From the NCBI RefSeq assembly GCF_003334305.1, contig NZ_QOWS01000017.1: a stretch of 64,000 nucleotides of DNA; one strand, written 5' to 3'. The DNA comes from Escherichia coli. Lineage in GTDB: Bacteria; Pseudomonadota; Gammaproteobacteria; Enterobacterales; Enterobacteriaceae. The notes under the pieces are model-generated. The model was not told the origin of the DNA, made no database searches, and worked only from the letters and a program-made list of their open reading frames with translations. A program made the translations under genes and the position numbers. Of this stretch, positions 28,793-43,173 are shown one piece after another. Every line of letters starts with the position of its first letter. Within the stretch, counting starts at the first letter, position 1.

Positions 28793-28806
28793 ACCCCGTC
28801 TCCTGA

Positions 28807-29873: not shown

Positions 29874-29952
29874 GGAGACTCATCCTCAGACCGGCAAGCC
29901 AGGAAAAGGTCGCAGGAAAAACCGGCTTACTGTTTGTTTTTTTATATTTTAC

Positions 29953-30215: not shown

Positions 30216-30233
30216 TGTAAGGCTGCCGGAACA
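30216..30233. promoter_or_regulatory. TGT-N12-ACA activator box (PLL-like late promoter toward vis)
   Basis: tgtaaggctgccggaaca, centred ~110 bp upstream of the vis ATG and divergent from Psid. Confidence 0.5.
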
Positions 30234-30335
30234 AATCCCCCCTGTTGCGTCTGCTGAAAATATTCACAAAATAAAACGCTACCCGAAGCCGGACGGACTT
30301 ATCCGGTGCTGTATGGACATTAACGAGGTAGCCCG

Positions 30336-30602
30336 ATGCAAGCTGTTTTTTCTTCCCCGTCTCCTGCCCCTGTGACGCCACTGATGCCGCTGCCGGACAT
30401 CACACAGGAGCGTTTTTTACGTCTGCCGGAAGTGATGCACCTGTGCGGCCTGTCACGCTCGACCATCTATGAACTTATCCGTAAGGGGGAATTTCCGCCG
30501 CAGGTGAGTCTTGGCGGTAAAAATGTGGCCTGGCTGCACTCTGAAGTCACCGCATGGATGGCCGGGCGCATTGCCGGACGCAAACGGGGGTACGACGCAT
30601 GA
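30336..30602 (+). CDS. vis: Vis / AlpA-family excisionase-regulator
   Basis: 88 aa. MerR-like w[49 protein letters not shown]. Same length as P4 orf88 (Vis). Confidence 0.8.
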
Positions 30603-30637
30603 TGATGCCCGCTCTGCAAAAAGTCCCTTTTTCTGGC

Positions 30638-30667
30638 TTGCCTTTTTCCGGCATTTGCGGATATAGT
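30638..30667 (+). promoter_or_regulatory. candidate PLE-like sigma70 promoter
   Basis: TTGCCT - 18 nt - TATAGT immediately downstream of vis, where P4 places its early/immunity promoter (recalled). Confidence 0.35.
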
Positions 30668-30991
30668 TTTTCCGTTGCCGCAAAATCGGCAGCCGGGCGT
30701 GAGAACCCGTGTAACTCGAAGGCGACATATGACGCGCCATGCGTCTTTTTTTGTGTCGCAATCAACGCCACAGAGCGCCAGATTATGGTGTGGCGTGTGG
30801 TTTGCCGTGCAGGTATGATCCTGTTCGCAATCGCATGTTATGCCACTGAGTCAATGGTAGCTCAGGCGGGGCAGCCTCCGGGCTGGCCGGTATTCTTCGA
30901 GGCCGGTATTCTCACCCCCGTCTGGGCTATCGCCATCGAGCGTGAGAACTCCGGCGATAGCAGTTATTTGCTACTCGAAGGAGGCTGCCTT

Positions 30992-31189
30992 ATGGCTACA
31001 ACCCTTACCCCCTCACACCCTGAATTTGTCTTTGTGTTTGCGGCTGTCCGTCGCGCAGACCGTCATCCCCGTATCTGCATGCTTCGCACCGTCGCCGGTG
31101 ATGAACGCAGCGCCCGCCGTTCCCTTGTCCGTGACTATGTGCTCTCCCTTGCTGCCCGTCTGCCGGTGGTGGAGGTGTCCCGTGCGTAA
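30992..31189 (+). CDS. Icd-like / P4 kil-region small protein
   Basis: 65 aa [45 protein letters not shown]... with a strong RBS gaaggagg 6 nt upstream. Resembles proteins annotated as Icd-like cell-division inhibitors in P4-like elements (recalled). Confidence 0.5.
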
Positions 31190-31469
31190 TAAAAAAGCCC
31201 CTCAGACCGTCTCAGCACGTCATGACGCCCGTGAACACCTCAGCATTGAGGCTTACCATAAGCTCAACCGCGCCAGCTCCGTATCCCAGTTTGTTGGGGG
31301 TGATTTGATTCACCGTGAACTCTCCGGCCTGCATCAGCTCTACATTCCGCATATTTTCAGCTACCTGAATGAAGATATTGATTTTGTGCTGAATGAGCTG
31401 AAAGCCAAAGGCCTGTGCCGCGATTTTCTCGCCCAGCAGAAAGACCGGGGAGACAGGACGCATGTTTGA
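31182..31469 (+). CDS. eps: Epsilon-like antirepressor (derepresses P2-type helper)
   Basis: 95 aa from a GTG preceded by ggaggtg. Position directly upstream of orf151 as in P4. Confidence 0.6.
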
Positions 31470-31917
31470 TTTTCCCCAGCCCGGTGAGATTTACCGTTCT
31501 GCCGGTTTTCCCGATGTGGCCGTGGTCGGCATTCTGGAAGACGGTATTCCGTGGGAAATGCCGTACCGCTGCCCGGACATTGTCTGGAACCCGTACCGCC
31601 GTAAATTCAGTATCCTTGTGCGTATCCTCGCTGACGGACGCACCACAGACATCCCGCTGGGGCGTTTTCTGCGGGAATTTACCTGTGACCGTCCTGACCT
31701 GTTTAAACGCAGCCCCGTAAACCGGCATGCGGTACTGAAAGAAATGGCCGGAGACCCGGAATTACAGAAATGGCGGGAAAAATATCTGGATATTTACCCG
31801 CAGGCCCCTGTTCCGGTCAGCCGGGCGGCACCGGTGGCGCGGGAATGGCGGGAAATTCCCCGCACGGAGCCTGACCCGGAAATCACCCCGGATAACAGTT
31901 ACCGCAATTATCTGTAA
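31462..31917 (+). CDS. P4 orf151-like protein
   Basis: 151 aa. The start overlaps the epsilon stop. Same length and position as P4 orf151. Confidence 0.65.
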   Translation: MFDFPQPGEIYRSAGFPDVAVVGILEDGIPWEMPYRCPDIVWNPYRRKFSILVRILADGRTTDIPLGRFLREFTCDRPDLFKRSPVNRHAVLKEMAGDPELQKWREKYLDIYPQAPVPVSRAAPVAREWREIPRTEPDPEITPDNSYRNYL

Positions 31918-32052
31918 TTAAAAAACGACACCCGAAAAATTAAATGTGCGTATTCGCGCAGGGATACGCACGTCTTCAGGAGACGCAGATATGCCTTATC
32001 AGTTAATGCAACCGGCACGGAATGCAGTCATCTGTCACAGGGAGGAAAGCAA

Positions 32053-32373
32053 ATGAAAACCCCCTTACCGCCCGTCTTACGCGCAGCCCTTTACCGTCGC
32101 GCTGTCGCCTGTGCCTGGCTGACCGTGTGCGAACGTCAGCACCGCTACCCGCATCTCACCCTTGAATCACTGGAGGCGGCCATCGCCGCTGAGCTGGAAG
32201 GCTTTTATCTGCGCCAGCACGGTGAGGAAAAAGGGCGTCAGATAGCCTGTGCCCTGCTGGAAGATTTAATGGAATCCGGCCCCCTGAAGGCCGCGCCGTC
32301 GCTGTCCTTTCTCGGGCTGGTTGTGATGGATGAACTCTGTGCCCGTCACATAAAAGCGCCGGTACTGCACTGA
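32053..32373 (+). CDS. conserved P4-family hypothetical protein upstream of alpha
   Basis: 106 aa with RBS gggagga. Same position, and as far as I recall the same length, as a P4 left-operon ORF. Confidence 0.55.
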
Positions 32374-32387
32374 AGGAGAACAACACC

Positions 32388-34721
32388 ATGAAAATGAACG
32401 TAACCGCCACCGTCAGCCATGCACTCGGCCACTGGCCGCGTATTCTCCCGGCGCTGGGGATTCAGGTGCTGAAAAACCGTCATCAGCCCTGTCCGGTCTG
32501 TGGCGGGAGTGACCGCTTCCGTTTTGATGACAGGGAGGGGCGCGGCACCTGGTACTGCAATCAGTGTGGTGCCGGTGACGGCCTGAAACTGGTTGAAAAG
32601 GTGTTTGGTGTTTCCCCGTCCGACGCGGCCGCAAAGGTGGCTGCCGTGACCGGCAGCCTGCCACCGGCTGACCCGGCAGTGACGGCCGCCGCCGTTGCTG
32701 AAACAGACGCTGCCCGGAAGAACGCCGCCACACTGGCACAAACCCTGATGGCGAAAACCCGTACCGGAACCGGTAACGCCTACCTGACCCGCAAGGGCTT
32801 TCCCGGCCGGGAATGCCGGATGCTGACCGGCACACACAGAGCCGGTGGCGTGAGCTGGCGCGCCGGTGACCTTGTGGTGCCACTGTATGACGACAGCGGC
32901 GAACTGGTTAACCTTCAGTTAATCAGTGCTGACGGCCGTAAGCGCACCCTGAAAGGCGGACAGGTCAGGGGCACCTGTCACACCCTTGAAGGACAGAATC
33001 AGGCCGGAAAACGTCTGTGGATAGCGGAGGGATACGCGACCGCACTTACCGTACATCACCTGACCGGTGAAACGGTGATGGTGGCGCTTTCTTCCGTGAA
33101 CCTCCTTTCTCTGGCCAGCCTTGCCCGGCAGAAGCATCCGGCCTGTCAGATTGTCCTTGCCGCAGACCGTGACCTCAGCGGTGACGGCCAGAAAAAAGCC
33201 GCCGCAGCCGCAGATGCGTGTGAGGGCGTTGTTGCCCTGCCGCCGGTCTTCGGTGACTGGAATGATGCCTTCACGCAGTACGGCGGGGAGGCCACCCGTA
33301 AGGCCATTTACGATGCCATCCGGCCACCGGCTGAAAGCCCGTTCGACACCATGAGCGAAGCAGAGTTTTCCGCCATGAGTACCAGCGAAAAGGCCATGCG
33401 TATCTATGAGCATTACGGTGAGGCGCTCGCGGTCGATGCCAACGGCCAGCTTCTGTCTCGCTATGAAAATGGTGTCTGGAAGGTGCTGCCGCCACAGGAC
33501 TTTGCCCGGGATGTGGCCGGGCTGTTTCAGCGTCTGCGCGCGCCGTTCTCCTCCGGGAAGGTGGCCTCCGTGGTGGACACCCTGAAGCTGATTATTCCGC
33601 AGCAGGAAGCCCCCTCCCGCCGCCTGATTGGCTTTCGTAACGGTGTGCTCGACACACAGAACGGCACGTTCCACCCGCACAGTCCGTCACACTGGATGCG
33701 CACCCTGTGCGATGTGGATTTCACCCCGCCGGTGGACGGTGAAACGCTGGAGACCCACGCCCCCGCGTTCTGGCGCTGGCTTGACCGTGCCGCCGGTGGC
33801 CGTGCGGAAAAACGCGACGTGATTCTGGCCGCACTGTTTATGGTGCTGGCAAACCGCTATGACTGGCAGCTCTTTCTGGAGGTGACCGGTCCCGGCGGCA
33901 GCGGCAAAAGTATCATGGCCGAAATAGCCACCCTGCTGGCCGGGGAGGATAACGCCACGTCGGCCACCATTGAGACGCTGGAATCCCCGCGTGAACGTGC
34001 CGCGTTAACTGGCTTCTCACTGATACGCCTGCCGGACCAGGAAAAATGGAGCGGCGACGGTGCCGGACTCAAGGCCATCACCGGCGGCGATGCGGTGTCC
34101 GTTGACCCGAAATACCGGGATGCATACTCCACGCATATCCCGGCGGTGATTCTGGCCGTGAACAATAACCCGATGCGCTTCACCGACCGCAGCGGCGGCG
34201 TGTCACGCCGGCGGGTGATTATTCACTTCCCGGAACAGATAGCCCCGCAGGAGCGCGACCCGCAGCTTAAGGACAAAATCACCCGCGAGCTGGCGGTCAT
34301 CGTGCGTCACCTGATGCAGAAGTTCAGCGACCCGATGCTCGCCCGGTCACTGCTTCAGTCCCAGCAGAACTCAGACGAGGCGCTGAACATCAAACGGGAT
34401 GCCGACCCGACGTTTGATTTTATCGGCTATCTGGAAACCCTGCCGCAGACCAGCGGCATGTATATGGGGAACGCCAGTATCATCCCGCGTAATTACCGTA
34501 AATACCTCTATCACGCCTATCTGGCCTACATGGAGGCAAACGGCTACCGGAATGTACTCAGTCTGAAAATGTTCGGGCTGGGGCTGCCGGTGATGCTGAA
34601 GGAATACGGACTGAATTACGAGAAGCGCCATACCAAACAGGGGATACAGACCAACCTGACGCTGAAAGAGGAAAGCTACGGCGACTGGCTGCCAAAATGT
34701 GACGACCCTGCAACAACCTGA
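32388..34721 (+). CDS. alpha: Alpha primase-helicase-origin binding protein
   Basis: 777 aa. Zinc-ribbon CPVCGGSDRFRFDD...WYCNQCG, TOPRIM primase region, Walker A GPGGSGKS helicase domain. Confidence 0.9.
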   Translation: MKMNVTATVSHALGHWPRILPALGIQVLKNRHQPCPVCGGSDRFRFDDREGRGTWYCNQCGAGDGLKLVEKVFGVSPSDAAAKVAAVTGSLPPADPAVTAAAVAETDAARKNAATLAQTLMAKTRTGTGNAYLTRKGFPGRECRMLTGTHRAGGVSWRAGDLVVPLYDDSGELVNLQLISADGRKRTLKGGQVRGTCHTLEGQNQAGKRLWIAEGYATALTVHHLTGETVMVALSSVNLLSLASLARQKHPACQIVLAADRDLSGDGQKKAAAAADACEGVVALPPVFGDWNDAFTQYGGEATRKAIYDAIRPPAESPFDTMSEAEFSAMSTSEKAMRIYEHYGEALAVDANGQLLSRYENGVWKVLPPQDFARDVAGLFQRLRAPFSSGKVASVVDTLKLIIPQQEAPSRRLIGFRNGVLDTQNGTFHPHSPSHWMRTLCDVDFTPPVDGETLETHAPAFWRWLDRAAGGRAEKRDVILAALFMVLANRYDWQLFLEVTGPGGSGKSIMAEIATLLAGEDNATSATIETLESPRERAALTGFSLIRLPDQEKWSGDGAGLKAITGGDAVSVDPKYRDAYSTHIPAVILAVNNNPMRFTDRSGGVSRRRVIIHFPEQIAPQERDPQLKDKITRELAVIVRHLMQKFSDPMLARSLLQSQQNSDEALNIKRDADPTFDFIGYLETLPQTSGMYMGNASIIPRNYRKYLYHAYLAYMEANGYRNVLSLKMFGLGLPVMLKEYGLNYEKRHTKQGIQTNLTLKEESYGDWLPKCDDPATT

Positions 34722-34728
34722 CCCACCT

Positions 34729-34753
34729 GACCGGCATCTGCCGGTCTTTTTTT
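34729..34753 (+). terminator. intrinsic terminator after alpha
   Basis: gaccggca-tc-tgccggtc followed by T7. Confidence 0.7.
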
Positions 34754-34767
34754 ATCCCTGAATTCCC

Positions 34768-35070
34768 CGAAGGTGAACAATCCACTGTTCACCCTTCACC
34801 GTATATTCACCCGTTATCACACTGAAATTAAAAGAGAAAAACGAAAGGTGAACAGTGTGAACAATCAAATCAAAAAAAACTTTTTTCTTCCTGAGTGATT
34901 TCAGCACGGGAAATTAATCCCCTGCACAAGTCACACCGGCAGAATGCCGGAGGTGAAGAATCGAATGTTCACCCTTCACCCATTATTCACCACCTATCCA
35001 ACTGAAATAAAAGGAGAAAACAGAAAGGTGAACAGTGTGAACAGTTCTTTCGAAAAAAAATTTTTTTCTT
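34768..35070. repeat. crr-like cis replication region: two ~120-bp direct repeats with TGTTCACC/GGTGAACA octamers
   Basis: 34768-34885 and 34948-35065 align nearly base for base (ggtgaa[c/g]aatc..tgttcacccttcacc..attcacc..gaaaggtgaacagtgtgaaca). About 4.8 kb from the ori cluster, as in P4. Confidence 0.75.
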
Positions 35071-35184
35071 ATTTTTAATTGTGCGAAAAACAAGCGACAC
35101 ACGCAGTGTGTATAGATATGTGTATAGTTATATTTTTTGAATATTATAATGTATTACAAATCAATGTGTTAGCTTGTAATATTC

Positions 35185-35205
35185 ACTCCTATTATCGGCA
35201 CCATC
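35185..35205. repeat. att core copy 2 (attR of P4-like element = attL of second island)
   Basis: Exact 21-bp copy of the thrW 3' end. Confidence 0.85.
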
Positions 35206-35270
35206 AAGAAAATCAATAACTTAGCTTAACTTCTCTAAGAAATTGTATCTTCTGTTATCACTTACAAACG

Positions 35271-35675
35271 CCTATACGTTGTTATGGGCTTTGGTAGTGT
35301 AACACGTATGGGCGAGTAGTTCCCAGGCTCAACCTCGTAACAAGTTCCTTTGAAGCTGGAAGACGTGCCACCGTCTCTAAACCTTCTACCAAAACTCTTA
35401 GCAAGATGTTCCACACCTGGCGCGGTGTCCAATGATGCTACACGTCGTGAGACGTTGCAGAGGATAAACAGGCTAAATGATGGGAAGAGTTTTAAGTGCA
35501 ATAGTGGATTAAAGCCCACCTCTTCAAAACCTAACTTGATCGGGAAAGAATCAAGCTCTAGCACGGTTTCGTCCACCGGAGTACAACGGGTGCCTGATAA
35601 GAGAAGAACTGCTAAGACTTCATAGCTTTTGTGAAAAAGCCCTTTTTAGTGGATACGCCTACGGCGCTTATTTTT
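35271..35675 (+). ncRNA. candidate structured non-coding RNA (class unknown)
   Basis: GC-enriched patch in AT-rich DNA. Contains a 13-bp hairpin (35271-35311), GUGA-capped hairpins (35442-35455 and 35625-35640), 6-bp helices (35484-35525 and 35535-35555), and a weak stem plus T6 at 35656-35676. The only ORFs here are two mutually antisense ones without RBS. Confidence 0.3.
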
Positions 35676-35808
35676 TGGTATAACCATCAAAGGCGCTTTA
35701 TGGCTCCTATTGTCTTGAAAATGTATCTTTACTTGTATTGTGTTTTATGCGTAGTCTCCCTGTGTAGTATGTAACTTGTTAATTTTCATATGAATACAGA
35801 GGCACACG

Positions 35809-35967
35809 ATGAAAAACATTGCAGCTATCAAACGGAATAACCGCAAGATTCACGCTCGTAAGTTCCTGTCTACGCCAGAAGGAAAAGCCTGGCTAGAGCG
35901 TAAACAGAGAGAAAACGAAGAAAGAAAACTCCTTAGTGAGTTGAAATGGCTTAGAGAGGATTTCTGA
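35809..35967 (+). CDS. small basic hypothetical protein (52 aa)
   Basis: MKNIAAIKRNNRKIHARKFLSTPEGKAWLERKQRENEERKLLSELKWLREDF. Weak RBS (gagg). Below the size cutoff of the ORF track. Confidence 0.3.
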   Translation: MKNIAAIKRNNRKIHARKFLSTPEGKAWLERKQRENEERKLLSELKWLREDF

Positions 35968-36310
35968 AAATCTCCAGAACGCAACAGGACGCATTCTAAC
36001 GCTGTTTTCATTACTCGGTATAGGGATTATAGGTGATGTGTGTTTAATGCGTCTGTGAGCTTGTTTTGTGCCTTATTTTGCATTTTCATAATGCAGGAGA
36101 GAACACGGAAAGCCTTAAAATTAATTATTGGGGTATTTAAGGCTATTTTTAGGTTATTTAAGGGTATTAAACTTGATTTAATTGATTGAAATATAAACAG
36201 ATAATTATGTATCTTATTGATTTATAAGGTTATTTTTAAATAAAGGTAAATAAAAAATAAATAGCCATAAATAGCTATAAATACATCTAAATACCTATAT
36301 CCCTTCCCTT

Positions 36311-36694
36311 ATGGCTAGATTGCGAGAAGTGCTTAACGCGATTTTCAGCGCCCCCCGATCTGGAAAATCCAGAATCCCCAAATATCAGCAAGGAATTTTC
36401 TTGCGTAATCAACATCGTTTTTACCTATTAAATCATTACACAGAAAGCCTTTCTGTAATGTCTCTCACTAAACTTTCACTAAACACGAGAATGATCGGTT
36501 TTATGTCGGATCAGATGCTAGAAATAGCACCACGTCTCACAAGGGCTGTAAGCGATGAAACCAGTGTTTATGCGGGTGCAGGTCAAAATATAGGCCAAAA
36601 TACATTTAACATAATAAACGTAATATGCACTAAGGAACACATAGAACGCCTTGAGTTGATGTATCAGGGGAAAAGTGGTGGATTTTTTACGTAG
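36311..36694 (+). CDS. hypothetical protein
   Basis: 127-codon ORF with no recognisable domain and no clear RBS. An internal start at MSLTKLSLNTR is possible. Confidence 0.3.
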   Translation: MARLREVLNAIFSAPRSGKSRIPKYQQGIFLRNQHRFYLLNHYTESLSVMSLTKLSLNTRMIGFMSDQMLEIAPRLTRAVSDETSVYAGAGQNIGQNTFNIINVICTKEHIERLELMYQGKSGGFFT

Positions 36695-36713
36695 GAGCAC
36701 GAGAGGGCTTCTA

Positions 36714-36741
36714 TTGACTTTTGTATGCTATGAAATATAAT
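36714..36741 (+). promoter_or_regulatory. candidate sigma70 promoter
   Basis: TTGACT - 16 nt - TATAAT. It overlaps the putative start of the 36730 ORF, so one of the two calls is probably wrong. Confidence 0.35.
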
Positions 36742-36999
36742 AGAAGGTTTTTTTATGTTGATAGTGATTGCACATTAAAGATTGAAAGCAAATTTAAACA
36801 TAAATTTTCAACACGTGAAAGAGAACTTGTTCGACAAATGATAAAACGTTTATTGAGCAACAATTTTGCAGTGATGCGCTATATGCCGAATTACACAAGG
36901 CTTTGCGAAAGTGATGTAAAAGTGAAGAAAGTAAGAATTGCAACTTTAAGCTACTTTTCATTGAATTTTTTAGTATGGAATTACACAGGAATAAGTTAG
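36730..36999 (+). CDS. hypothetical protein (doubtful)
   Basis: 89-codon ORF from ATG 36730. No domain recognised. The 3' end runs into the TTACAC motif field. Confidence 0.2.
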   Translation: MKYNRRFFYVDSDCTLKIESKFKHKFSTRERELVRQMIKRLLSNNFAVMRYMPNYTRLCESDVKVKKVRIATLSYFSLNFLVWNYTGIS

Positions 37000-37084
37000 G
37001 GATATTCTATGATTTACACAGGGAATATAGGGGGATTATGGCACACACATAGAAAGACATTACACAAAGTGCTATGTGACAAAT

Positions 37085-37305
37085 GGATGTAACGAGAGGT
37101 TACATTCAGCTATCTGAAATGCTCTCTGTAAGAAAGTTGGTAGTAACGATATGTTACATAGACTAATTATTGAATGTAACGATATTACACATCGGTAGTA
37201 ACGATACGTTACATCGACTAATTATTGAATGTAACGATATTACACATCGGTAGTAACGATACGTTACATCGACAGATGATTGGATGTAACGAAAGGTTAC
37301 ACAAT
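37085..37305. repeat. iteron array: 55-bp tandem repeats carrying GTAAC-N5-GTTAC palindromes
   Basis: Units at 37139-37193 and 37194-37248 differ at 2 positions. A third partial unit runs 37249-37302, with a further palindrome atgtaacgagaggttacat at 37087-37105. That makes about 7 palindromic or half-palindromic sites. Confidence 0.85.
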
Positions 37306-37500
37306 AAGACTATATTATTTATAATACTAAATAAAACTATATTAGATTATTAATTAGATCATAATAATATTCTTTATATCTATATATATGATCTTTTGCC
37401 TTCCGGCGTTAGCTTCACTCCCTGGCAAGCAGCCTTACTCCGCTACCTTTCGGGCTACGTTGGCTGGCCCGTTCCGCTCACACCGAAAGCAAAGCGTTAC

Positions 37501-37542
37501 TTTCTTCGTGTAACTATCGTGGCGGTAACGCCCACGAAGAAA
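37501..37542. other. long hairpin with GNRA-capped inner helix inside a GC-rich patch
   Basis: tttcttcgtg (37501-37510) pairs perfectly with cacgaagaaa (37533-37542). Inner ggcg-GTAA-cgcc at 37521-37532. Confidence 0.5.
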
Positions 37543-37624
37543 TACTATTGCGCTGTGCGCAGAAGAGTAATCACCTAACCAATCATAGATTGCTTATGTG
37601 TTAACTCTCTCTACCTCTTAATTC

Positions 37625-37776
37625 CACTTCCTACATTTAATAACTCTGTTATTCTCTGTAGTTGTGTAATTACTCGAAGAGAGAGCGGCTAAAGCTCAAT
37701 TACACTCTGCTTTCCTCGTGTAAGTTCACTAAGCCTCAATACAATTTCACTTCCTACATTCTGTAGTCGTGTAATT
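37625..37776. repeat. dispersed direct repeats (cacttcctacatt and ctgtagtYgtgtaatt)
   Basis: cacttcctacatt at 37625 and 37748. ctgtagttgtgtaatt at 37656 and ctgtagtcgtgtaatt at 37761. The modules are adjacent in copy B and 18 bp apart in copy A. Confidence 0.75.
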
Positions 37777-38398
37777 GTTTTCGGTGGAAAAGCCAGAGGC
37801 GACACCGAAAGAGAATTCTGATCTTATTAATCTTATCTATCTTAGTTAATCTTCTTACTTTATCTACTTTATTATTAATAATAGCTTTATAAGCTCTGTG
37901 TAGCTCTCTGACGCAAGAAACAGCATTCAGGAAGGGAATCACCTTAGAAAAGGTGTTCTTTGCGTCATAATGTGTTTTATGAAGGATTCAGAGGTGTTTC
38001 ATAACAGGAATGTATAGAGGATATTTTAATTAATTAAAAATAAGGGGTCTAAATGCTTCTCTAACAACATTAAGCAGGGTAGGGAATGGAAACGCATTGC
38101 CTACATATAATAAGCTCACTACAGGGCTTTACAGAGCGTTTTATAAAGTGACTCTCTGTTTTATATTTACCATTACCTTTTCATATACCTAACAAATACA
38201 AAATAAGCCCCTTCAATAAGCCTCTGGCGAGCGAAACAGCCATTAGATAAGGGAATGTATTGCTTTTATCAAAATCTCGTCAGAATGCGATTGAGAGTGT
38301 TTTAGCGGATAATGAAGAATAGCACTACATAGAAGAGCACGAATTGTTAAGCAAAATCATAACATACTGAAAAAGATCAGTTTTTTTGTGAAAAGGTA

Positions 38399-38427
38399 TT
38401 GACAAACGTCTCTTTCTGTGCAATAAT
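38399..38427 (+). promoter_or_regulatory. strong sigma70 promoter P1 (extended -10)
   Basis: TTGACA - 17 nt - TGcAATAAT, followed by agg-TATTAG-aGGGG. Paralogous to the promoter at 40928. Confidence 0.65.
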
Positions 38428-38486
38428 AGGTATTAGAGGGGACAGGAATAGATTCTTATCCTCTAAATAATTAAACCAATGCACCG

Positions 38487-38526
38487 CACTTTGAAGCCCA
38501 AGAGGCTTGCAAGGTGTTTTTTCTTT
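38487..38526 (+). terminator. intrinsic terminator ending the P1 leader
   Basis: Interrupted stem (acttt-g-aagcc / ggctt-gc-aaggt) followed by gTTTTTTCTTTT. Ends 29 nt before the first ATG of the operon. Confidence 0.6.
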
Positions 38527-38554
38527 TAACCAAATCGAATAAGGAGGCTAATTA

Positions 38555-38731
38555 ATGAAATATTTCACTCCACAGGATGTAGTAGAAGCCTGGAAACGTG
38601 GTGAGATCAACCGCTTTAAAGTAAGGATGTATAGAAACACCGCTCGCCGTTGTGGTTATCCAGAGCGTGAAAAATGTTTTGACGATGCACTGAAAATTAT
38701 TGATGAACTGCGTAAAGCTGAGAAAGAATAA
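38555..38731 (+). CDS. small hypothetical protein (58 aa)
   Basis: ATG preceded by aaggagg at optimal spacing. MKYFTPQDVVEAWKRGEINRFKVRMYRNTARRCGYPEREKCFDDALKIIDELRKAEKE. Missed by the 60-aa ORF cutoff. Confidence 0.55.
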   Translation: MKYFTPQDVVEAWKRGEINRFKVRMYRNTARRCGYPEREKCFDDALKIIDELRKAEKE

Positions 38732-38753
38732 TAGACAAGAGAAGGAGAAAACT

Positions 38754-38921
38754 ATGAGCGAAACTAAGAAACCAATTCCGCGCACTTACCTTCACGTTGA
38801 CCCTGAAATCTTCAAGGTTTTATTTGCTGAAGCCAAGAAAAGGCAAATTATGGTCAGTGATTTGATGTTAGAAATCATTACTGAAGCAGCAGAGAACATC
38901 AAACAAAAAAAGGGTAAGTGA
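38754..38921 (+). CDS. ribbon-helix-helix (Arc/CopG-like) DNA-binding protein
   Basis: 55 aa from the ATG after gaaggag. The pattern PRTYLHVDPEIFKVLFAEAKKRQIMVSDLMLEIITEAAENI fits strand-helix-helix. Confidence 0.5.
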   Translation: MSETKKPIPRTYLHVDPEIFKVLFAEAKKRQIMVSDLMLEIITEAAENIKQKKGK

Positions 38922-38974
38922 TCCTCATTCACTTTAGTAGCGCATTAAGCGTGATTTATAAGGAGATGATTCTA

Positions 38975-39718
38975 ATGTCTAAAATTAAATTGATTCGTGA
39001 AAAATACCAGTATGTTGATAAACAAACAGGAGAAATTAAAGACCGAACTTTGAATATACCGCATTACTTTTGTGAGATTGAATTTATCTACTCCTCAAGT
39101 GTTGATGGTGGAAAAGTTAAGTTTAGTGCAGAAATGCAAAAATTATATTGCTATGTTTCAGATTGGGAGAAATCAGGGGGGATATGTTTTGAAACACAAA
39201 CGAAGTTAAGTAAAGTTTGTGGCTGTAGCCGTAAGACAGTTAATGAACTGATTGGTCTTATGATTAAAATCGGTCTTTTAGAAGAGGTCGGAGAACGAAT
39301 TCCAAAACGTCCTTTAAAATTACGTGCGCTACCTCTCACAGATGCACATATTACTCCCCCAGGAGAATCATCACTCTCTGATCTTTCTGAGGCAGAAGAA
39401 GCACAGGAACAACCTAAAGGCCATAAACAGCCTTCTTTTGATGTTCTTGATGATTGGGATGCGCCTTTACCGTGGGAGACGGAAGAAACACCTGTTTCAT
39501 CAAGTGAAAAGGTAGCTAATGATAATGAGGAGGATGTATTAGAGAATTTTGCCTCTCTTATCATCCAGGAGAAACACACAAGAACAGGAGGAGCATCATT
39601 TATTGAGTTTGCAAATTCACTAGCTTATAGATACGGGCTAAAACGACCAAATGGTATTGAGGCATATTTTTCTAAGAATTACCCAAATGTATATGATGAA
39701 TTTGATATTCCCTTTTAA
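38975..39718 (+). CDS. wHTH replication-initiator-like protein with acidic linker
   Basis: Start after taaggag. The segment LYCYVSDWEKSGGICFETQTKLSKVCGCSRKTVNELIGLMIKIGLLEE resembles HTH_36-type plasmid/phage Rep N-domains (recalled pattern). Has an acidic D/E/S-rich middle. Confidence 0.45.
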   Translation: MSKIKLIREKYQYVDKQTGEIKDRTLNIPHYFCEIEFIYSSSVDGGKVKFSAEMQKLYCYVSDWEKSGGICFETQTKLSKVCGCSRKTVNELIGLMIKIGLLEEVGERIPKRPLKLRALPLTDAHITPPGESSLSDLSEAEEAQEQPKGHKQPSFDVLDDWDAPLPWETEETPVSSSEKVANDNEEDVLENFASLIIQEKHTRTGGASFIEFANSLAYRYGLKRPNGIEAYFSKNYPNVYDEFDIPF

Positions 39719-39729
39719 TAAGGAGGACT

Positions 39730-40009
39730 ATGATTCAATATTTAGTAAAAAAATCAAGTAGACAGAATTCAGTGTAATGACACAGGAAAACGCATCTACG
39801 AAACACTTGCTTACCTCTATAAAGGAAAGCCAACACCGCTAAAATATAGCGATGTGTTACATCGAGCAGGGTGCTCTGAAGCTGGTTTAAAATTCTGGCT
39901 GAAACAGCTATCAAATTTCGGTGTTATTGAAATGAAAGAGCTGTCTTTTTCTACATTCAATCTCAAAAGATTAGATAAAGAAATAGAATTCATCTATTCC
40001 ACTCTCTAA
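39730..40009 (+). pseudogene. wHTH protein gene interrupted by a frameshift in an A7 run (or using programmed slippage)
   Basis: Strong RBS taaggagg then ATG 39730. The frame closes at 39777. The +1 frame stays open to 40009 and encodes ...GKRIYETLAYLYKGKPTPLKYSDVLHRAGCSEAGLKFWLKQLSNFGVIEMKE. The switch point is A7 at 39747-39753. One fewer A gives a continuous 92-aa ORF. Confidence 0.5.
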
Positions 40010-40050
40010 AATCTCTCTATGTAATTAAAATATAAAAGGAAAACATTATT

Positions 40051-40170
40051 ATGATAGTAGCTATGTATTGGTTATTGTTCTTTCTCACGTTAGAAGCATA
40101 CTTTGGGGTGTTTTCCTTTAAAAGAAAAGGAAAAGTAAATAATGGCAAAAAGAAAAAACAACGTTGTTAA
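40051..40170 (+). CDS. small hydrophobic peptide with polybasic tail (39 aa)
   Basis: MIVAMYWLLFFLTLEAYFGVFSFKRKGKVNNGKKKKQRC: one TM helix plus a K-rich tail. RBS-like aagga 10 nt upstream. Overlaps the next ORF by 29 nt. Confidence 0.3.
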   Translation: MIVAMYWLLFFLTLEAYFGVFSFKRKGKVNNGKKKKQRC

Positions 40171-40558
40171 GAAAATCGGTGATTCAGCTTCTCTTCTAAG
40201 TAAACCTAAACCTAAATCTATTCTAAGACGTAAAGACTTTAAAGAGCTAGTTACGCTCACCAAGCAAAATAGCGCCCCTGGCGAATGGAAAACAGAGATC
40301 ATAGAACATTCTCCCTCTGTGCCTTGTGGAGATGAATTTAACGCCTTGCAAGAAATCTTATCTTCAACACCTGGCGTATTCTGGAAACCTAGAAAAAGAA
40401 AAGAGTATATCGTTGATAGCTCTGATTTACGCAAATACCAGATTTTAGGATTTGAAGATTATAACCACTACGTCGGTTATCTCGCCACCAATGGCCTAAA
40501 TAATTTAGTTCCTGAATTCCAAATTTTAGATAATGCTGATCACTATGGAGACTTTTAA
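40142..40558 (+). CDS. hypothetical protein with basic N-terminus
   Basis: 138 aa in the same orientation as the operon. No domain recognised. Confidence 0.5.
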   Translation: MAKRKNNVVKKIGDSASLLSKPKPKSILRRKDFKELVTLTKQNSAPGEWKTEIIEHSPSVPCGDEFNALQEILSSTPGVFWKPRKRKEYIVDSSDLRKYQILGFEDYNHYVGYLATNGLNNLVPEFQILDNADHYGDF

Positions 40559-40559
40559 T

Positions 40560-40898
40560 ATGAACAAAAACACGTATGACACAATTTATTCACTAATTAA
40601 TTATTATGAGGATGATTACCTCCTGCCTTTAAACCGCGCTGAACTTGAAGCATACAAAGAAAACACGCCAGGGGCGCTAAATGAGGCGTTTAAACACTGG
40701 GATTTAGCTGTGAATGCCTTTGAGCACCTTTCTAAAAGAGTAGAGATGCTCTGTAAGCGTGAAAACGCATACCTGACAGCCGATCAGATATGGGAGCTAT
40801 CAAACTGGATAGAAGATATTGAATCTGATGTTCGCTATGTAGGGGATGGCCTGGTTGAATTAGCTCAACGCTTAGGCGCTACTATCACAGAAGAATAA
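40560..40898 (+). CDS. hypothetical protein
   Basis: 112 aa from an ATG 2 nt after the upstream stop. Helical and acidic. No domain recognised. Confidence 0.5.
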   Translation: MNKNTYDTIYSLINYYEDDYLLPLNRAELEAYKENTPGALNEAFKHWDLAVNAFEHLSKRVEMLCKRENAYLTADQIWELSNWIEDIESDVRYVGDGLVELAQRLGATITEE

Positions 40899-40927
40899 AA
40901 AAAGCAACAAAAAAGTTGTAAAATATC

Positions 40928-40956
40928 TTGACATTCCATCTATTGTATGTTAATAT
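40928..40956 (+). promoter_or_regulatory. strong sigma70 promoter P2 (extended -10)
   Basis: TTGACA - 17 nt - TGtTAATAT, followed by aat-TATATA-GGGG. Same layout as P1. Confidence 0.65.
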
Positions 40957-41094
40957 AATTATATAGGGGTGATTATTTTTCCTTTATTGGTTCGATATTA
41001 AAAATTCTTCCTGTCATTAAAGGGGAGTAAAATCTCCGCTCCCCGCTTCTCCTCCTTAAGTAAATACTGTGTCATTATACCTCTTTTTTCCTTT

Positions 41095-41124
41095 GTTATG
41101 CATACATCTTGGAGTATGCATAAC
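41095..41124. other. perfect 10-bp inverted repeat in the P2 leader
   Basis: gttatgcata-catcttggag-tatgcataac. Confidence 0.6.
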
Positions 41125-41153
41125 ATAGGGTAATTACATAGGTATGAGTTAAT

Positions 41154-41185
41154 AAAAGGCGGCTCTAAATGCTGCCTTTTATTTT
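41154..41185 (+). terminator. intrinsic terminator ending the P2 leader
   Basis: aaaaggcggc-tctaaat-gctgcctttt (10 bp including one G-U) followed by ATTTT. Ends 63 nt before ATG 41248. Confidence 0.65.
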
Positions 41186-41247
41186 GCCCGTTATGCAACT
41201 TAAAAGTTGTATTTCTTACTTTAAAAAAGGTAACAAGGTTTATATAA

Positions 41248-41460
41248 ATGTTGTTTTTAAACGATAAAGAGCAAATCATCAAGTATAAAGATGAAATGCT
41301 GAAAATTAATCCACAAATTACCGAAATGGTAGCTAAATACGCTGGGTGTTCTGTCGAGGAAGTAGAAAGATGTGTTGAAAAATATTTTTCTCCTTCTACT
41401 CCGTCTACACCTTCCCTTAATGAATTAATCAAATTAAAAGCTAAGGAGATTACTAAATGA
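41248..41460 (+). CDS. small hypothetical protein
   Basis: 70 aa. First gene after the P2 leader. The stop overlaps the next start (ATGA). Confidence 0.5.
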   Translation: MLFLNDKEQIIKYKDEMLKINPQITEMVAKYAGCSVEEVERCVEKYFSPSTPSTPSLNELIKLKAKEITK

Positions 41461-41819
41461 TTATTGATTTAGACACTCTGTTTCCAGTTAGAAAGACTTT
41501 CACAGATATTGTAAGTTATTGTACTGATCCGTTTGCCTCTGTAGAAAGCAAGGTTTTTGCTTCTCTTCCTGCTGATGTTGAGTGCGGCGACTTGATCACC
41601 AGTACTGGCGCTAAATATGAATCAGGAGATGATATCTATGTTGTTATGAGTGAATTTGTAACGGCTGGAGAAAACAAGCCTGTAGATGTGCTACGTAGTA
41701 ATGCTGGTCTTGTCTGCATCAAAGCTGATGCGCTGAATGCTGTAAGTGAAGCAGCAAAAACAGCATTAATTAAAAAAGGCTTCCAGCTTGAAGGGTTCCA
41801 TTCTGTTTTCACTTCTTAA
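41457..41819 (+). CDS. head-decoration-like protein (lambda D-like position and size)
   Basis: 120 aa directly upstream of the capsid-like gene. The size and G-rich beta-type pattern loosely resemble lambda gpD-type decoration proteins. The call is based on synteny. Confidence 0.4.
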   Translation: MIIDLDTLFPVRKTFTDIVSYCTDPFASVESKVFASLPADVECGDLITSTGAKYESGDDIYVVMSEFVTAGENKPVDVLRSNAGLVCIKADALNAVSEAAKTALIKKGFQLEGFHSVFTS

Positions 41820-41837
41820 TAAAAGGAATAATAATAA

Positions 41838-42869
41838 ATGATTCTAGGTAATGATTACGTTGATTTAGCTCCGCTTTTCCAGGCACACAGCACTAGAAAC
41901 TTTCTGCTCTCTACCCTCGACTTCACTGATCCGGTGGGCGTTAGTTCTCATAAAGTAGCTGTTTCTCAGCTTGTCGAAAGCAACGAATCTCTGTTCAACA
42001 AAGAAACCTCTCGTTTCTCTTCTGAACACAATGTTACTAAGCGTGAACAAGGTAAAGAATGGCTGATTGAAATCCCGTATTTTCTTCGTGAAGATGTGAT
42101 CCGTCCTTCTGATGTTCAAGGCAAGCGTAAGCCTGGCACTGATTTTCAGGAAACACTCACTGATATCTATGCGGAATATATCGCTAAACACCACGTAGCG
42201 TATCAGCGTACAAAAGAGAGCGTGTTGGCTGCATCTCTGTTTAGCGGTAAAACTTACACGCCTAAAACTGATGATGTTCTTATCGAGTGGGGCAAGCTGT
42301 TTAACGTGGCACCTATGAAAGCCACCTTGAACGCTTCCAGCACTGACACAATGACCGTTTTCAAGCAATTTGACCAGCTTGCTACGGATATGATTGCTAA
42401 GGCACAAAACCAGGCTGCAACCATTGAGCGTGTTGTTGTGTTCTGTAAACCTGCGGCATTCAACGCTATTCGTTACAGTGTTGGTATGGTCAATGCTTTC
42501 CAATATGCAAGCCCTGTAGACGATGCCAACGTGGTGTTTAATGTGCGTTCCCTGCTACCAGGTGTAACTACTTTCACCATTCCAGGAACTAACATTGACC
42601 TGATCAAAGTGACTGATCCGCTACACCTTGCACATATGGCTTCTGATGCGGTTGCTGTGCCTAAATTCGCTAAGGGGGCAGGTGTTTACCAATCTATCTA
42701 TGGGGCAGCTTCCAGCACCTTTGAACTGATCAATGCCGCTCCTGCTGAGGTGTATAGCTATAGCTATGAATCTTCTTCTCGTGGTGATGCTGTTAACGTT
42801 GTTACAGAGAATAGCCAGATGGTGGTAAACCACGGCGTTGGTTTCTCCGTTCAAATCACTGTTAAATAA
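41838..42869 (+). CDS. major capsid protein, lambda gpE-like family (putative)
   Basis: 343 aa (lambda gpE is 341 aa). N-terminal LAPLFQAHSTRNFLLSTLDF resembles the P.TFLLDTFF motif I recall from Phage_cap_E proteins. RBS aaaggaa. Followed by a strong terminator. Confidence 0.5.
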   Translation: MILGNDYVDLAPLFQAHSTRNFLLSTLDFTDPVGVSSHKVAVSQLVESNESLFNKETSRFSSEHNVTKREQGKEWLIEIPYFLREDVIRPSDVQGKRKPGTDFQETLTDIYAEYIAKHHVAYQRTKESVLAASLFSGKTYTPKTDDVLIEWGKLFNVAPMKATLNASSTDTMTVFKQFDQLATDMIAKAQNQAATIERVVVFCKPAAFNAIRYSVGMVNAFQYASPVDDANVVFNVRSLLPGVTTFTIPGTNIDLIKVTDPLHLAHMASDAVAVPKFAKGAGVYQSIYGAASSTFELINAAPAEVYSYSYESSSRGDAVNVVTENSQMVVNHGVGFSVQITVK

Positions 42870-42887
42870 TATTTTAACGTGTAATAG

Positions 42888-42922
42888 AGGCGTGGCGTGA
42901 ATAACACGCTTCGCCTTTTTTT
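42888..42922 (+). terminator. intrinsic terminator after the capsid-like gene
   Basis: aggcg-tg-gcgtg aataa cacgc-tt-cgcct followed by T6. Confidence 0.7.
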
Positions 42923-42955
42923 ATTTATTTTTAAATTTTGAGAGGTGATTAAAAT

Positions 42956-43159
42956 ATGGAAGTGATTCTGAAATCAAAAAATGGTGTACACGTTTATTTA
43001 GATGCTAATGATTCAAGAGGCTTGTTAAATCTGAAATATCTATGTTCTCTCTTGGATGTTCCATATGAAGGCGTAAAAGCCCGAATGTTCAGATTAAACG
43101 AGAGTATTGATCAAGCTCTACACCATTTCTTAAGCAAAGAAGGTGGTAAAAATGATTAA
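42956..43159 (+). CDS. small hypothetical protein (possible HTH)
   Basis: 67 aa with RBS gagagg. The segment LKYLCSLLDVPYEGVKARMFRLNESIDQAL looks HTH-like. Confidence 0.45.
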   Translation: MEVILKSKNGVHVYLDANDSRGLLNLKYLCSLLDVPYEGVKARMFRLNESIDQALHHFLSKEGGKND

Positions 43160-43173
43160 TAAGGGGATTTTAA

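Follow-up and report, generated by a model that had tools for sequence, protein, structure and literature searches.

Among the closest described counterparts of the locus analysed here are the PLE satellites of Vibrio cholerae and the phage ICP1 that they meet. The PLE origin of replication is non-coding and carries semi-palindromic iterons (PMC8263062; PMC7145576), and ICP1 encodes Odn, a protein that joins a RepA_N-like domain to a T5orf172 nuclease domain and cuts the PLE origin at these iterons (PMC8263062). A natural variant, PLE1-Mut, carries a 42-bp iteron duplication (PMC8263062).

Here we describe an array of GTAAC-N5-GTTAC palindromes in a 64-kb window of the Escherichia coli genome (the window being the whole stretch of DNA that was analysed). 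In our view the array serves a 12-kb integrative satellite as the type-A iteron block of its replication origin, with a probability of roughly 0.8. Although an iteron origin by itself is ordinary, its interest lies in the setting that the array revealed, which resembles the PLE and ICP1 system in several respects.

The palindromic array and its surroundings

The array lies within a 12-kb satellite-like element (35185/35205 to 47274) with a copy of the thrW 3′ end at either border (35185-35205 and 47262-47274). An integrase is encoded on the minus strand (45842-47119), and plus-strand MCP, TMP and Dit-like genes (41838-45760) are the sole structural genes. About 12% of complete E. coli genomes carry the element, of which we found no earlier description in the literature that we searched. 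Logan contigs of 12.1-12.4 kb end in the att repeats. The TMP and Dit-like proteins of the element have homologues in the lytic phage inny (inny_105 and inny_106), and 626 bp of the element are 97.6-99% identical to that phage. By these sequence features this common element appears to be a satellite that depends on, and parasitises, virulent phi92/phAPEC8-like phages (Stephanstirmvirinae), which are phage-therapy candidates. Searches against Pfam, PHROG and NCBIfam recovered no recognisable helicase, primase or loader in the element, and the 138-aa and 112-aa proteins encoded downstream of Rep had no match in these databases; the missing helicase or loader is a point against an origin.

Tandem Repeats Finder reported a tandem at 37139-37292 with a period of 55 bp (2.8 copies, 93% matches, score 266), and a repeat search found the units at 37139-37193 and 37194-37248 to be 96% identical and the third, at 37249-37303, to be 76% identical, in agreement with the two near-identical units and one diverged unit described in the initial annotation. 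At a finer scale the array consists of seven copies of a 21-nt site, which start at 37084, 37138, 37171, 37193, 37226, 37248 and 37281 and together span 37084-37301. Five of the seven contain the perfect GTAAC-N5-GTTAC palindrome (at 37089, 37143, 37198, 37253 and 37286), and the remaining two (37171 and 37226) carry the variant GTAACGATATTACAC, which corresponds to the imperfect palindrome previously noted in each unit. Iteron 1 (37084-37104; TGGATGTAACGAGAGGTTACA) stands 54 bp before iteron 2 (37138-37158; TGGTAGTAACGATATGTTACA), both with perfect palindromes, while iteron 3 (37171-37191; TGAATGTAACGATATTACACA) combines one good half-site with a displaced TTAC. Iteron 4 (37193-37213; CGGTAGTAACGATACGTTACA) is again perfect, iterons 5 and 6 (37226-37268) are a variant followed by a perfect palindrome, and iteron 7 (37281-37301; TGGATGTAACGAAAGGTTACA) is a perfect palindrome that abuts an AT-rich stretch. 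Iterons 3 and 4 and iterons 5 and 6 make up the two near-identical 55-bp units, either of which may be the newer copy. The start-to-start gaps between the seven sites are 54, 33, 22, 33, 22 and 33 bp, and since all are close to multiples of 11 the sites would lie on one face of the helix; the earlier description of about seven evenly phased sites was therefore correct in number and phase, but the spacing itself is uneven.

The palindrome is specific to this position, as the five perfect copies in the 64-kb window all fall in a span of 212 bp inside the array. When up to one mismatch was allowed, six palindromes were observed; shuffling the whole window gave 1.14 ± 0.98, and the count of six was reached in none of 100 shuffles. 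We found no perfect DnaA box at the array. Iteron 3 agrees with the DnaA-box consensus at eight of nine positions (TATTACACA), and four matches of this quality occur in 230 bp where about 0.55 are expected, which is a weak signal.

Related elements with a complete array have five or six sites in all cases examined, in the layout P-54-P-33-variant-22-P-33-P or close to it. Iteron 1 is kept in most of the related loci that retain the array, and the variant site of iteron 3 is conserved in relatives. The additional 55-bp unit, composed of one variant and one perfect site, was seen in this strain only; the sole 100%-identical match in a single piece among 5,426 genomes came from strain A7, the source of the window, and a BLAST search of 37050-37600 against plasmids returned a partial copy on one E. 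coli plasmid. Judged by this comparison, the ancestral array did not have the form of a 55-bp tandem.

The AT-rich stretch that follows (37302-37395) has a GC content of 10-18%, falling from 18% at 37290-37349 to a regional minimum of 10% at 37320-37379, the most AT-rich 60 bp. It is a candidate DNA unwinding element, as had been suggested in the initial annotation, and both this role and the origin reading proposed there find support in the anatomy of the locus and in the covariation described below. Next to it lies a GC-rich element (37390-37580) with hairpins (TTTCTTCGTG...CACGAAGAAA; GCGCTGTGCGC) that have z-scores of -2.4 and -2.6. Given that variants of this element differ by indels of 1-2 nt, it is non-coding. 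It varies little across 15 variants and is constant in standard-backbone elements of all five Rep types, but is missing from the diverged L010-type backbone (L010, L147 and L148). It may be a priming or primosome-assembly site, or alternatively a small RNA; an Rfam scan of 34500-47500 at E ≤ 1 gave two chance-level matches, neither of them in the array or in the GC-rich element. On the other side of the array, the left flank of the iteron slot (36888-37066, plus strand) holds four same-strand TTACAC(A) repeats at 36891, 36981, 37014 and 37060, with three more copies within the array. These repeats weakly resemble DnaA boxes, and every Rep type from A to E is represented among the elements that keep the flank.

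A plus-strand promoter-like site at 38399-38427 (TTGACA-17-(TG)cAATAAT; 11 of 12 matches), 1.1 kb downstream of the array, precedes an operon encoding a 58-aa protein, a 55-aa protein resembling the ribbon-helix-helix (RHH) fold and a 247-aa winged-helix (wHTH) protein, Rep type A (38975-39718, plus strand). Rep resembles the lambda O initiator. It matches PHROGs 270, 1032 and 8102 (‘replication initiation protein’) and 391, 345 and 678 (‘replication initiation O-like’), and in Pfam it matches HTH_36 only, which places it outside the RepA_N family. The N-terminal wHTH specificity domain covers approximately residues 1-129 (38975-39361) and is followed by an acidic linker and a constant C-terminal domain ending in ...YDEFDIPF, of which DEFDIPF resembles the SSB tip. 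A sequence search of the PDB with Rep returned only designed repeat proteins (E about 0.005), the NCBIfam search gave nothing useful, and a scan of GTDB species representatives against the Rep alignment yielded 213 pattern matches, none of which was confirmed. The best 120 of 594 protein homologues all come from Escherichia or from metagenome assemblies. The 1.3-1.7 kb previously given as the distance from the array to the RHH and wHTH genes proved accurate, at 1.45 kb to the start of the RHH-like gene (38754) and 1.67 kb to rep. The array lies upstream in non-coding DNA, and the rep gene itself (38975-39718), unlike the initiator gene of lambda, contains no repeats; this arrangement, too, speaks against an origin.

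If the array is an origin, Rep dimers would use their N-terminal winged helix to bind the palindromes, and because a spacing in multiples of about 11 bp places the sites on one helix face, the bound DNA may be wrapped or bent. Binding would then open the adjacent 10%-GC stretch (37302-37395), the constant C-terminal half of Rep with its SSB-tip-like DEFDIPF could bring in replication proteins of the host or helper, and the GC-rich hairpin element beside the AT-rich stretch may start priming or primosome assembly. Such an origin would presumably fire upon infection by the helper.

Covariation of the iteron block with Rep type

At least five types of the Rep N-terminal domain have been exchanged among these elements, and each is accompanied by a distinct iteron block in one slot. 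We compared 28 related loci, and as these come from related E. coli strains the counts do not represent independent events. In 15 loci the block abutting the final AT-rich stretch was read base by base, and motif counts were used for the others; the adjoining block agreed with the Rep type in all 15 of the loci that were read. Of the 15 type-A loci, 14 had GTAACGA half-sites (4-7 each) as their sole iteron type; in the remaining locus, L148, IS2 replaces the origin region. The nine type-B loci had 4-7 copies of TAGGTCAnnnTGAnCTAGGGGG together with 0-5 GTAAC sites that constitute distal relics. Type C (one locus) has CCCCTATCAA-N4-TGATA repeats, type D (two loci) has (C)ACAGAATTCTGT repeats, and type E (one locus) has GGAAGTGGTTnCC repeats. 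In elements with two blocks, each is followed by its own copy of the AT-rich segment.

We considered whether types A and B use one array in L002-L006 and rejected this, as type B has an extra block beside the AT-rich stretch. The type-B locus L002 retains a complete GTAAC array of five sites, so the presence of an array alone is no proof of its current use. Relic blocks left beside the cognate block form a readable record of past swaps.

The 1.2 kb between the origin and Rep exist in two haplotypes that assort independently of Rep type, as do the alleles of the 58-aa protein. In this interval L122 and L124, both of type A, share 95-97% identity with type-B loci but only 85-88% with the window and L012, which are themselves of type A. 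The pairing of Rep type and block also holds in a diverged backbone (L010 and L145-L147). On the evidence of these alignments, the pairing is one that survives recombination of the intervening DNA and is not a matter of mere proximity.

These results bear on several proposals in the initial annotation. The 247-aa wHTH protein, which had been named as a candidate binder, gains credit from its initiator and O-like PHROG matches and from an N-terminal domain type that covaries with the block, and it is probably the protein that recognises the array. A 92-aa wHTH reading frame (36721-36999) had been put forward as another binder, but relatives have other DNA in place of the variable cargo segment to which it belongs, and the proposal is not supported. 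Absence of the array from otherwise homologous islands had been named as an observation that would refute its proposed role. The array is in fact absent from many of them, but in each case a different block fills the slot and accompanies a different Rep N-terminal domain, so the absences are evidence for the origin reading. The locus thus has the form of a cassette system at an origin, in which the specificity domain of the initiator and the iterons are swapped jointly at one slot. Within this family of elements it also provides a rule for annotation, as the block adjoining the AT-rich stretch predicts the Rep type.

Palindromes in viral genomes and alternative readings of the array

A scan of IMG/VR for paired GTAAC-N5-GTTAC palindromes recovered 111 loci, where by our own estimate a few at most would be expected by chance. 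In 13 distinct lineages the palindromes lie inside, or at most 500 bp from, a gene for a wHTH protein similar to the Rep N-terminal domain, and their period in the examples that were read is 21-24 bp. All nine of the viral wHTH proteins tested against initiator PHROGs matched the same families as Rep, and a profile built from viral proteins only scored 24 bits with Rep type A and 37 bits with type B. The gene order in one of these loci (L046) is lambda-like, with cI, cro, an O-like gene with internal iterons and then a DnaB-like helicase. The recognition helices of viral initiators associated with the palindrome are varied, without a shared signature that predicts GTAAC, so the palindrome is not predictable from protein sequence. 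An exact-pattern scan of IMG/VR for GTAACGATAYGTTACAT found nothing beyond copies of this element and isolated chance matches.

An alternative, which we regard as unlikely, is that the array is an operator through which this wHTH protein, as a transcription factor, controls a promoter. The promoter it would control could be a promoter-like site at 37296-37325 (GTTACA-18-TATAAT) that reads into the GC-rich element and whose first hexamer is overlapped by iteron 7, or it could be that of the distant rep operon. PGAP labels the protein a ‘transcriptional regulator’, and many of the paired palindromes in the viral scan flank promoters in the fashion of repressor operators. Covariation with the N-terminal domain is expected of an operator as well, and taken alone it fits the operator of a regulator as well as it fits an initiator site. 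The architecture is harder to reconcile with regulation, as five to seven phased sites extend over 160-220 bp while only the last touches the promoter-like site, the strong operon promoter lies 1.1 kb away, and every iteron block has its own copy of the AT-rich segment. In addition, the wHTH protein matches initiator families and not repressor families, and the phage nuclease fusions described below appear to target the DNA-binding domain of Rep, as with the PLE origin. Regulation could nevertheless coexist with origin function, as iterons commonly autoregulate.

The initial annotation had also raised the possibility of a pac or cos site read by the small terminase of a helper. No recognisable terminase was detected in the element with Pfam or PHROG, so it must offer some packaging signal, and arrays of short repeats are known from pac sites, those of P1 and SPP1 among them. 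A site recognised by the helper should stay constant, however, and here the block changes with the N-terminal domain of the satellite Rep while the morphogenesis genes and the flanks are constant, which makes a packaging site very improbable. Moreover, the genome of inny, a relative of the likely helper, contains neither GTAAC-N5-GTTAC nor a profile match to the site, BLAST of 37050-37600 gave no match in 50,697 phage records, and the viral scan, in which initiator genes and promoters were the contexts considered, placed the motif at both.

The array could alternatively contain binding sites for the 55-aa RHH-like protein (38754-38921, plus strand), either as a partition centromere or as an RHH operator. 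Arrays of short repeats are typical targets of RHH proteins, the gene shares an operon with rep, and it travels with the Rep N-terminal domain into phage genomes, the protein being 100% identical to muut_153 of phage muut. This protein had been named as a candidate binder, but a role as determinant of specificity is contradicted by its invariance across iteron types: an invariant protein cannot set the specificity of an array whose blocks are swapped, and the identical protein (WP_000005056.1) is encoded by elements without any GTAAC site (L135 and L142). A type-E element has no annotated RHH gene, and no RHH homologue was found beside the palindrome arrays of the viral loci. The fold itself is assigned from a sequence pattern, as the protein has no Pfam, PHROG or NCBIfam match, and the constant TTACACA repeats could be its target instead. 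We therefore give this reading very little weight. Lastly, res- or hix-type sites for a serine recombinase are extremely unlikely: resolvase sites are imperfect palindromes in arrays and a 179-aa resolvase/invertase gene about 600 bp upstream faces the array in many relatives (L002, L003, L006, L124-126, L137 and L138), but by tblastn the window and several relatives have the array and no recombinase, the recombinase-bearing elements carry different blocks that track Rep type, and the conserved TTACACA flank separates the array from the recombinase gene.

Phage nuclease fusions and comparison with known systems

Returning to the origin reading, the DNA-binding domains of the satellite Rep recur in nucleases of lytic phages. 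Residues 1-129 of the protein encoded by inny gene 184 are 96% identical to the N-terminal domain of Rep type A, and are followed by a second HTH_36 domain and a MUG113/T5orf172 nuclease domain (phrog_681 ‘endonuclease’, E = 3.9e-18). Similarly, residues 1-123 of muut_154 are 98.4% identical to satellite Rep type C, and the N-terminal domain of a nuclease of phage Mt1B1_P17 shares 86% identity with satellite Rep type D. The second wHTH domain is constant in all three phage proteins, with about 80% protein identity to satellite Rep type E and 98.9% DNA identity over 261 bp, so that these T5orf172 fusions combine type E with type A in inny, with type C in muut and with type D in Mt1B1_P17. Among 50,697 phage records there was a matching nuclease for each of the five types except B, which is also the commonest non-A type in a small sample (9 of 13 loci).

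We put at even odds that the array is one front of an arms race of the PLE and Odn kind in E. coli, in which phages counter cassette-swapping satellites by means of T5orf172 nucleases equipped with two DNA-binding domains acquired from satellites, and in which inny gp184 cuts the array. Type B could then be an escape type. It is doubtful that the 55-bp iteron duplication is an escape variant like PLE1-Mut. If such cleavage takes place, it would provide a second natural case of an origin-directed nuclease, the previous one being that of ICP1 and PLE in Vibrio cholerae. The setting is E. coli, and inny and muut were isolated on K-12 MG1655, so every step is open to standard genetics.

Several described origins share parts of this organisation. 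The iteron plasmids pSC101, P1, F, R6K and RK2 likewise have phased repeats of about 22 bp, an adjacent AT-rich stretch and a winged-helix Rep, possibly along with DnaA-box-like motifs beside the iterons, which are weak here and include no perfect box at the array; their iterons are direct repeats bound by Rep monomers, whereas the palindromes of the satellite suit dimers. SaPI and other PICI resemble the satellite in having their own initiator and a cognate, type-specific iteron origin beside an AT-rich stretch. The SaPI repeats are short direct hexamers or octamers on both sides of the AT-rich region, directly downstream of a helicase-type Rep, whereas in the satellite palindromes lie on one side of the AT-rich stretch and upstream of a non-helicase wHTH protein.

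The lambda origin offers another parallel. There, as in the array, several dyad-symmetric initiator sites stand beside an AT-rich stretch, and the N-terminal winged helix of O sets specificity while a constant C-terminal half presumably recruits the replisome. In lambdoid origins, as in the satellites, N-terminal domain and iterons are exchanged together between relatives, and the likeness extends to the O-like PHROG matches of Rep and to the occurrence of the palindrome at O-like genes in 13 phage lineages. The two differ in that the lambda iterons are inside the initiator gene, compared to 1.67 kb upstream of rep here, and in that no P-like loader or helicase gene follows rep. Rep also matches HTH_36 in place of Phage_rep_O, and its C-terminus mimics the SSB tip.

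With respect to setting, the PLE offer a further parallel. They depend on a virulent phage, as the satellite appears to do. Like the probable origin of the satellite, the PLE origin is non-coding and has semi-palindromic iterons (PMC8263062; PMC7145576), and in both cases the Rep N-terminal domain and the origin behave as exchangeable modules of several specificity types. The chimera of a satellite Rep DNA-binding domain and a T5orf172 nuclease in ICP1 has its counterparts in inny, muut and Mt1B1_P17, and the 42-bp duplication of PLE1-Mut has one in the 55-bp duplication of this strain. In contrast to PLE and ICP1, the host is E. coli, the phages belong to Stephanstirmvirinae, and the satellite initiator is of the HTH_36/O-like type and not RepA_N. 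For types A and C the domains of phage and satellite share 96-98% identity, compared to 42% for Odn, and the E. coli phage proteins have a tandem pair of satellite-type DNA-binding domains. A further difference from PLE is that at least five specificity types occupy one slot in these satellites, with non-cognate relics retained beside the cognate block.

Anatomy and setting of the array

Tandem Repeats Finder returned a period of 55 bp at 37139-37292 (2.8 copies, 93% matches), and we found the true repeat unit to be a 21-bp site present seven times, with starts at 37084, 37138, 37171, 37193, 37226, 37248, and 37281. The initial annotation had proposed about seven evenly phased sites; the number holds and each spacing is near a multiple of 11 bp, but the spacing itself is uneven (54, 33, 22, 33, 22, and 33 bp). 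Perfect GTAAC-N5-GTTAC palindromes make up five of the seven sites and occur nowhere else in the 64 kb (shuffling the whole window and allowing one mismatch gave 1.14 +/- 0.98 palindrome matches), and the other two are a conserved variant, GTAACGATATTACAC. Relatives that have kept the array whole carry five or six sites; a second 55-bp unit was observed in strain A7 only. Very AT-rich DNA directly follows the array, as had been claimed, and holds the lowest GC content of the region (10%, at 37320-37379). Of the 20 copies of TTACAC(A) in the whole window, seven lie on the same strand at 36891-37303; the constant left flank has four of these and the array the other three. Four DnaA-box-like sequences, each matching at 8 of 9 positions, occur at 37012-37246.

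In E. coli strain A7 (NZ_CP028767.1), to which the window is identical, this stretch lies between proA/thrW and the pao genes. Three copies of a tRNA-Thr 3′ end (ACTCCTATTATCGGCACCA; 23340, 35185, and 47262, the last shortened) mark off two tandem elements. The first is a P4-like satellite (23340-35205) with an integrase, psu, delta, a sid-like gene, and the alpha primase gene, just past which lie two blocks of its own iterons (TGTTCACC/GGTGAACA; 34770-35060); it also encodes an ATP-dependent (OLD-type) nuclease and a UvrD-type helicase (24694-28016) that resemble the Gabija defence pair. The second, a low-GC 12-kb element (35205-47274), carries the array. Its plus strand encodes, in order, a 58-aa protein, a 55-aa RHH-like protein, the 247-aa wHTH protein (Rep), four small unknowns, a lambda-E-type major capsid protein, a tape-measure protein (TMP; 612 aa), and a Dit-like tail protein, followed by a tyrosine integrase on the minus strand; no terminase, portal, or tail-tube genes were recognised between 35205 and 47274. 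The element looks like a satellite family, of which we found no description in the literature searched.

The array region was matched in 655 of 5,426 complete E. coli genomes (about 12%; 685 with a longer query), and integration sites of the element include thrW, a tRNA-Gly gene, and others. Five Logan contigs of 12.1-12.4 kb (L122-L126) comprise the element alone with att repeats at their ends, which is compatible either with assembly breaks at repeats or with excised circles. Upstream of the array, between attL and the origin, lies a variable cargo slot (35205-37000) that in relatives (L002, L003, L006, L137, and L138) encodes a serine recombinase, a GmrSD-type nuclease, an HNH endonuclease, or an HTH protein, and in the window holds two uncharacterised ORFs (36311-36694 and 36721-36999).

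Right after the AT-rich stretch comes a 190-nt GC-rich, hairpin-rich segment (37390-37580; GC 50-60%), which is nearly identical among standard-backbone elements of all five Rep types and missing from the diverged L010-type backbone. Its variants differ by 1-2-nt indels, which rules out coding, and Rfam gave no match for it. No ORF longer than 62 aa occurs from the array to the operon, whose strong promoter-like site lies at 38399-38427. The intervening ~0.8 kb (37580-38400), a possible source of non-coding RNAs, exists as two population haplotypes that are about 86% identical and includes a ~106-123-bp duplication (37620-37671 and 37743-37776) that L002 lacks.

Pairing of Rep type with iteron block

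Rep (38975-39718, plus strand) matches Pfam HTH_36 and PHROGs labelled 'replication initiation protein' and 'replication initiation O-like'. Its N-terminal ~115-130 residues fall into sharply distinct types and its C-terminal half is nearly invariant. The C-terminus (39695-39718) ends in YDEFDIPF, and all variants read end in D(E/D)FD(I/L)PF, resembling the tip of E. coli SSB (DFDDDIPF), the docking site of PriA, the chi subunit, DnaG, and other proteins.

A single array common to types A and B would count against Rep as the binder, and this possibility was refuted by an extra block in type-B elements; once this block was seen in the DNA separating the array from the GC-rich element, the verdict against Rep was reversed. 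Each type-B element has a second block, in which TAGGTCAnnnTGAnCTAGGGGG is repeated 4-5 times at intervals of about 22-23 bp, and an eroding GTAAC array of 5, 4.5, 3.5, or no sites; in the type-B locus L002 the second block is inserted within the AT-rich stretch, which recurs as a second copy just after the block. Wider genome sampling recovered three more N-domain types, each of which has a distinct block in this slot: CCCCTATCAA-N4-TGATA in type C (one locus), (C)ACAGAATTCTGT in type D (two loci), and GGAAGTGGTTnCC in type E (one locus).

Across 28 loci from related E. coli strains, 14 of the 15 with a type-A Rep contain 4-7 GTAACGA half-sites as their sole block. The exception (L148; NZ_CP027445.1, 644-1960) has IS2 in place of the origin region and no array, and this element is probably immobilised. 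Each of the 13 non-A loci has a different block, and any GTAAC sites there are relics (0-5) located farther from the AT-rich stretch. Where the origin was read base by base (15 loci), the block adjoining the final AT-rich stretch fits the Rep type; non-A elements have up to five different adjacent blocks, the cognate one being nearest that stretch (L004, 3330-3720; L005; L011; L143, 1270-1740). Such multi-block origins constitute a legible record of successive origin-cassette swaps.

Judged from these sequence comparisons, the pairing is not mere linkage. The 1.2 kb between origin and operon exists as two haplotypes whose distribution is independent of Rep type: there, the type-A loci L122 and L124 share 95-97% identity with type-B loci compared with 85-88% with the type-A window and L012. 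Alleles of the 58-aa protein likewise assort independently, and the pairing persists in the backbone of L010 and L145-L147, where the Rep C-terminus and downstream genes are distantly related or undetectable. The RHH-like protein (WP_000005056.1) is identical in elements with and without GTAAC sites and therefore cannot set which block is read. Of the candidate binders originally put forward, the 247-aa wHTH protein is retained, its N-domain type pairing with the block, and the RHH protein, invariant across block types, is not.

The same palindrome recurs at other initiator genes. A search of IMG/VR for GTAAC-N5-GTTAC palindromes paired within 35 bp returned 111 loci, compared with a few at most expected by chance according to our own estimate. 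Thirteen distinct lineages have the palindromes within, or no more than 500 bp from, a gene whose wHTH product is homologous to the Rep N-domain, with a period of 21-24 bp in the examples read. All nine of these proteins tested belong to the same initiator PHROGs, a profile built from the viral domains alone detects both satellite N-domain types, and one locus (L046) has the classic lambdoid order of cI-like, cro-like, O-like gene with internal iterons, and DnaB-like helicase. GTAAC-N5-GTTAC is therefore a recurrent iteron type of O-like initiators; the recognition helices of the viral initiators that share it are too diverse for predicting specificity. Part of the IMG/VR loci are operator-like pairs flanking promoters, and the array may, though less probably than an origin, be an operator for the same wHTH protein; the two functions may also coexist.

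Array anatomy, family assignment, covariation, and the phage chimeras described below are established from sequence. The array is most likely the iteron block of a replication origin. Rep-A dimers bound to the phased palindromes would melt the adjoining AT-rich DNA, the replisome would be recruited by the constant C-terminal half of Rep, and the GC-rich element (37390-37580) might have a role in priming.

Rep domains in phage nuclease chimeras

A tblastn search with Rep against 50,697 phage records gave a single match, the lytic phage inny (Justusliebigvirus, 147 kb). Its gene 184 (L127, 6001-7104) encodes a three-part protein: residues 1-129 share 96% identity with Rep type A, residues 184-243 form a second HTH_36 domain, and residues 271-365 are a MUG113/T5orf172 domain (GIY-YIG superfamily) that matches phrog_681 'endonuclease'. 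Homologues in the phages muut (muut_154; L132, 1198-2196) and Mt1B1_P17 (L133, 1204-2190) retain the second wHTH and the nuclease and have different N-terminal domains, 98.4% identical to satellite Rep type C and 86% identical to type D, respectively. The second wHTH common to the phage proteins corresponds to satellite Rep type E (~80% protein identity; 98.9% DNA identity over 261 bp), so that the domain pairs preceding the nuclease are A+E in inny, C+E in muut, and D+E in Mt1B1_P17; no type-B domain was found among the 50,697 records. The RHH-like gene also lies directly upstream in phages (100% identical in muut, 96% in inny), and inny and the satellite have 626 bp of DNA in common at 97.6-99% identity, spanning this gene and the Rep N-domain.

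The satellite Dit-like protein is 61% identical to inny_106 and its TMP is 55% identical to inny_105 over the N-terminus and 27% over the rest, homology that points to Stephanstirmvirinae as candidate helper or target. The inny genome (L129) also has six GC hairpins (GGCGGGAAATGGTTTCCCGCC; 127797, 130682, 131563, 133871, 135605, and 136464), each preceded by a promoter-like -10 and followed by the RBS of a small early gene, and these have a core, GGAAATGGTTTCC, in common with the satellite type-E iterons. The shared core may be coincidental, or the type-E domain may have started out as a phage regulator.

The whole inny genome has no GTAAC-N5-GTTAC palindrome and no match to a profile of the seven sites. 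This absence, together with the covariation with Rep type, contradicts the earlier suggestion that the array is a packaging site. Covariation also contradicts an RHH centromere, given the identical RHH protein in elements without GTAAC sites, and recombinase sites, given the presence/absence pattern (the window cargo consists of other ORFs).

We found no paper in the literature searched that links satellites to these coliphages or names these proteins. The closest parallel comes from Vibrio cholerae, where the phage ICP1 encodes Odn, a RepA_N-like domain joined to T5orf172, which was shown to cut the origin of the satellite PLE in an iteron-requiring manner, and which PLE escapes by replication-module swap or by a 42-bp iteron duplication (PMC8263062). 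Chimeras of the inny gene 184 type have the same architecture as ICP1 Odn, a Rep DNA-binding domain joined to T5orf172.
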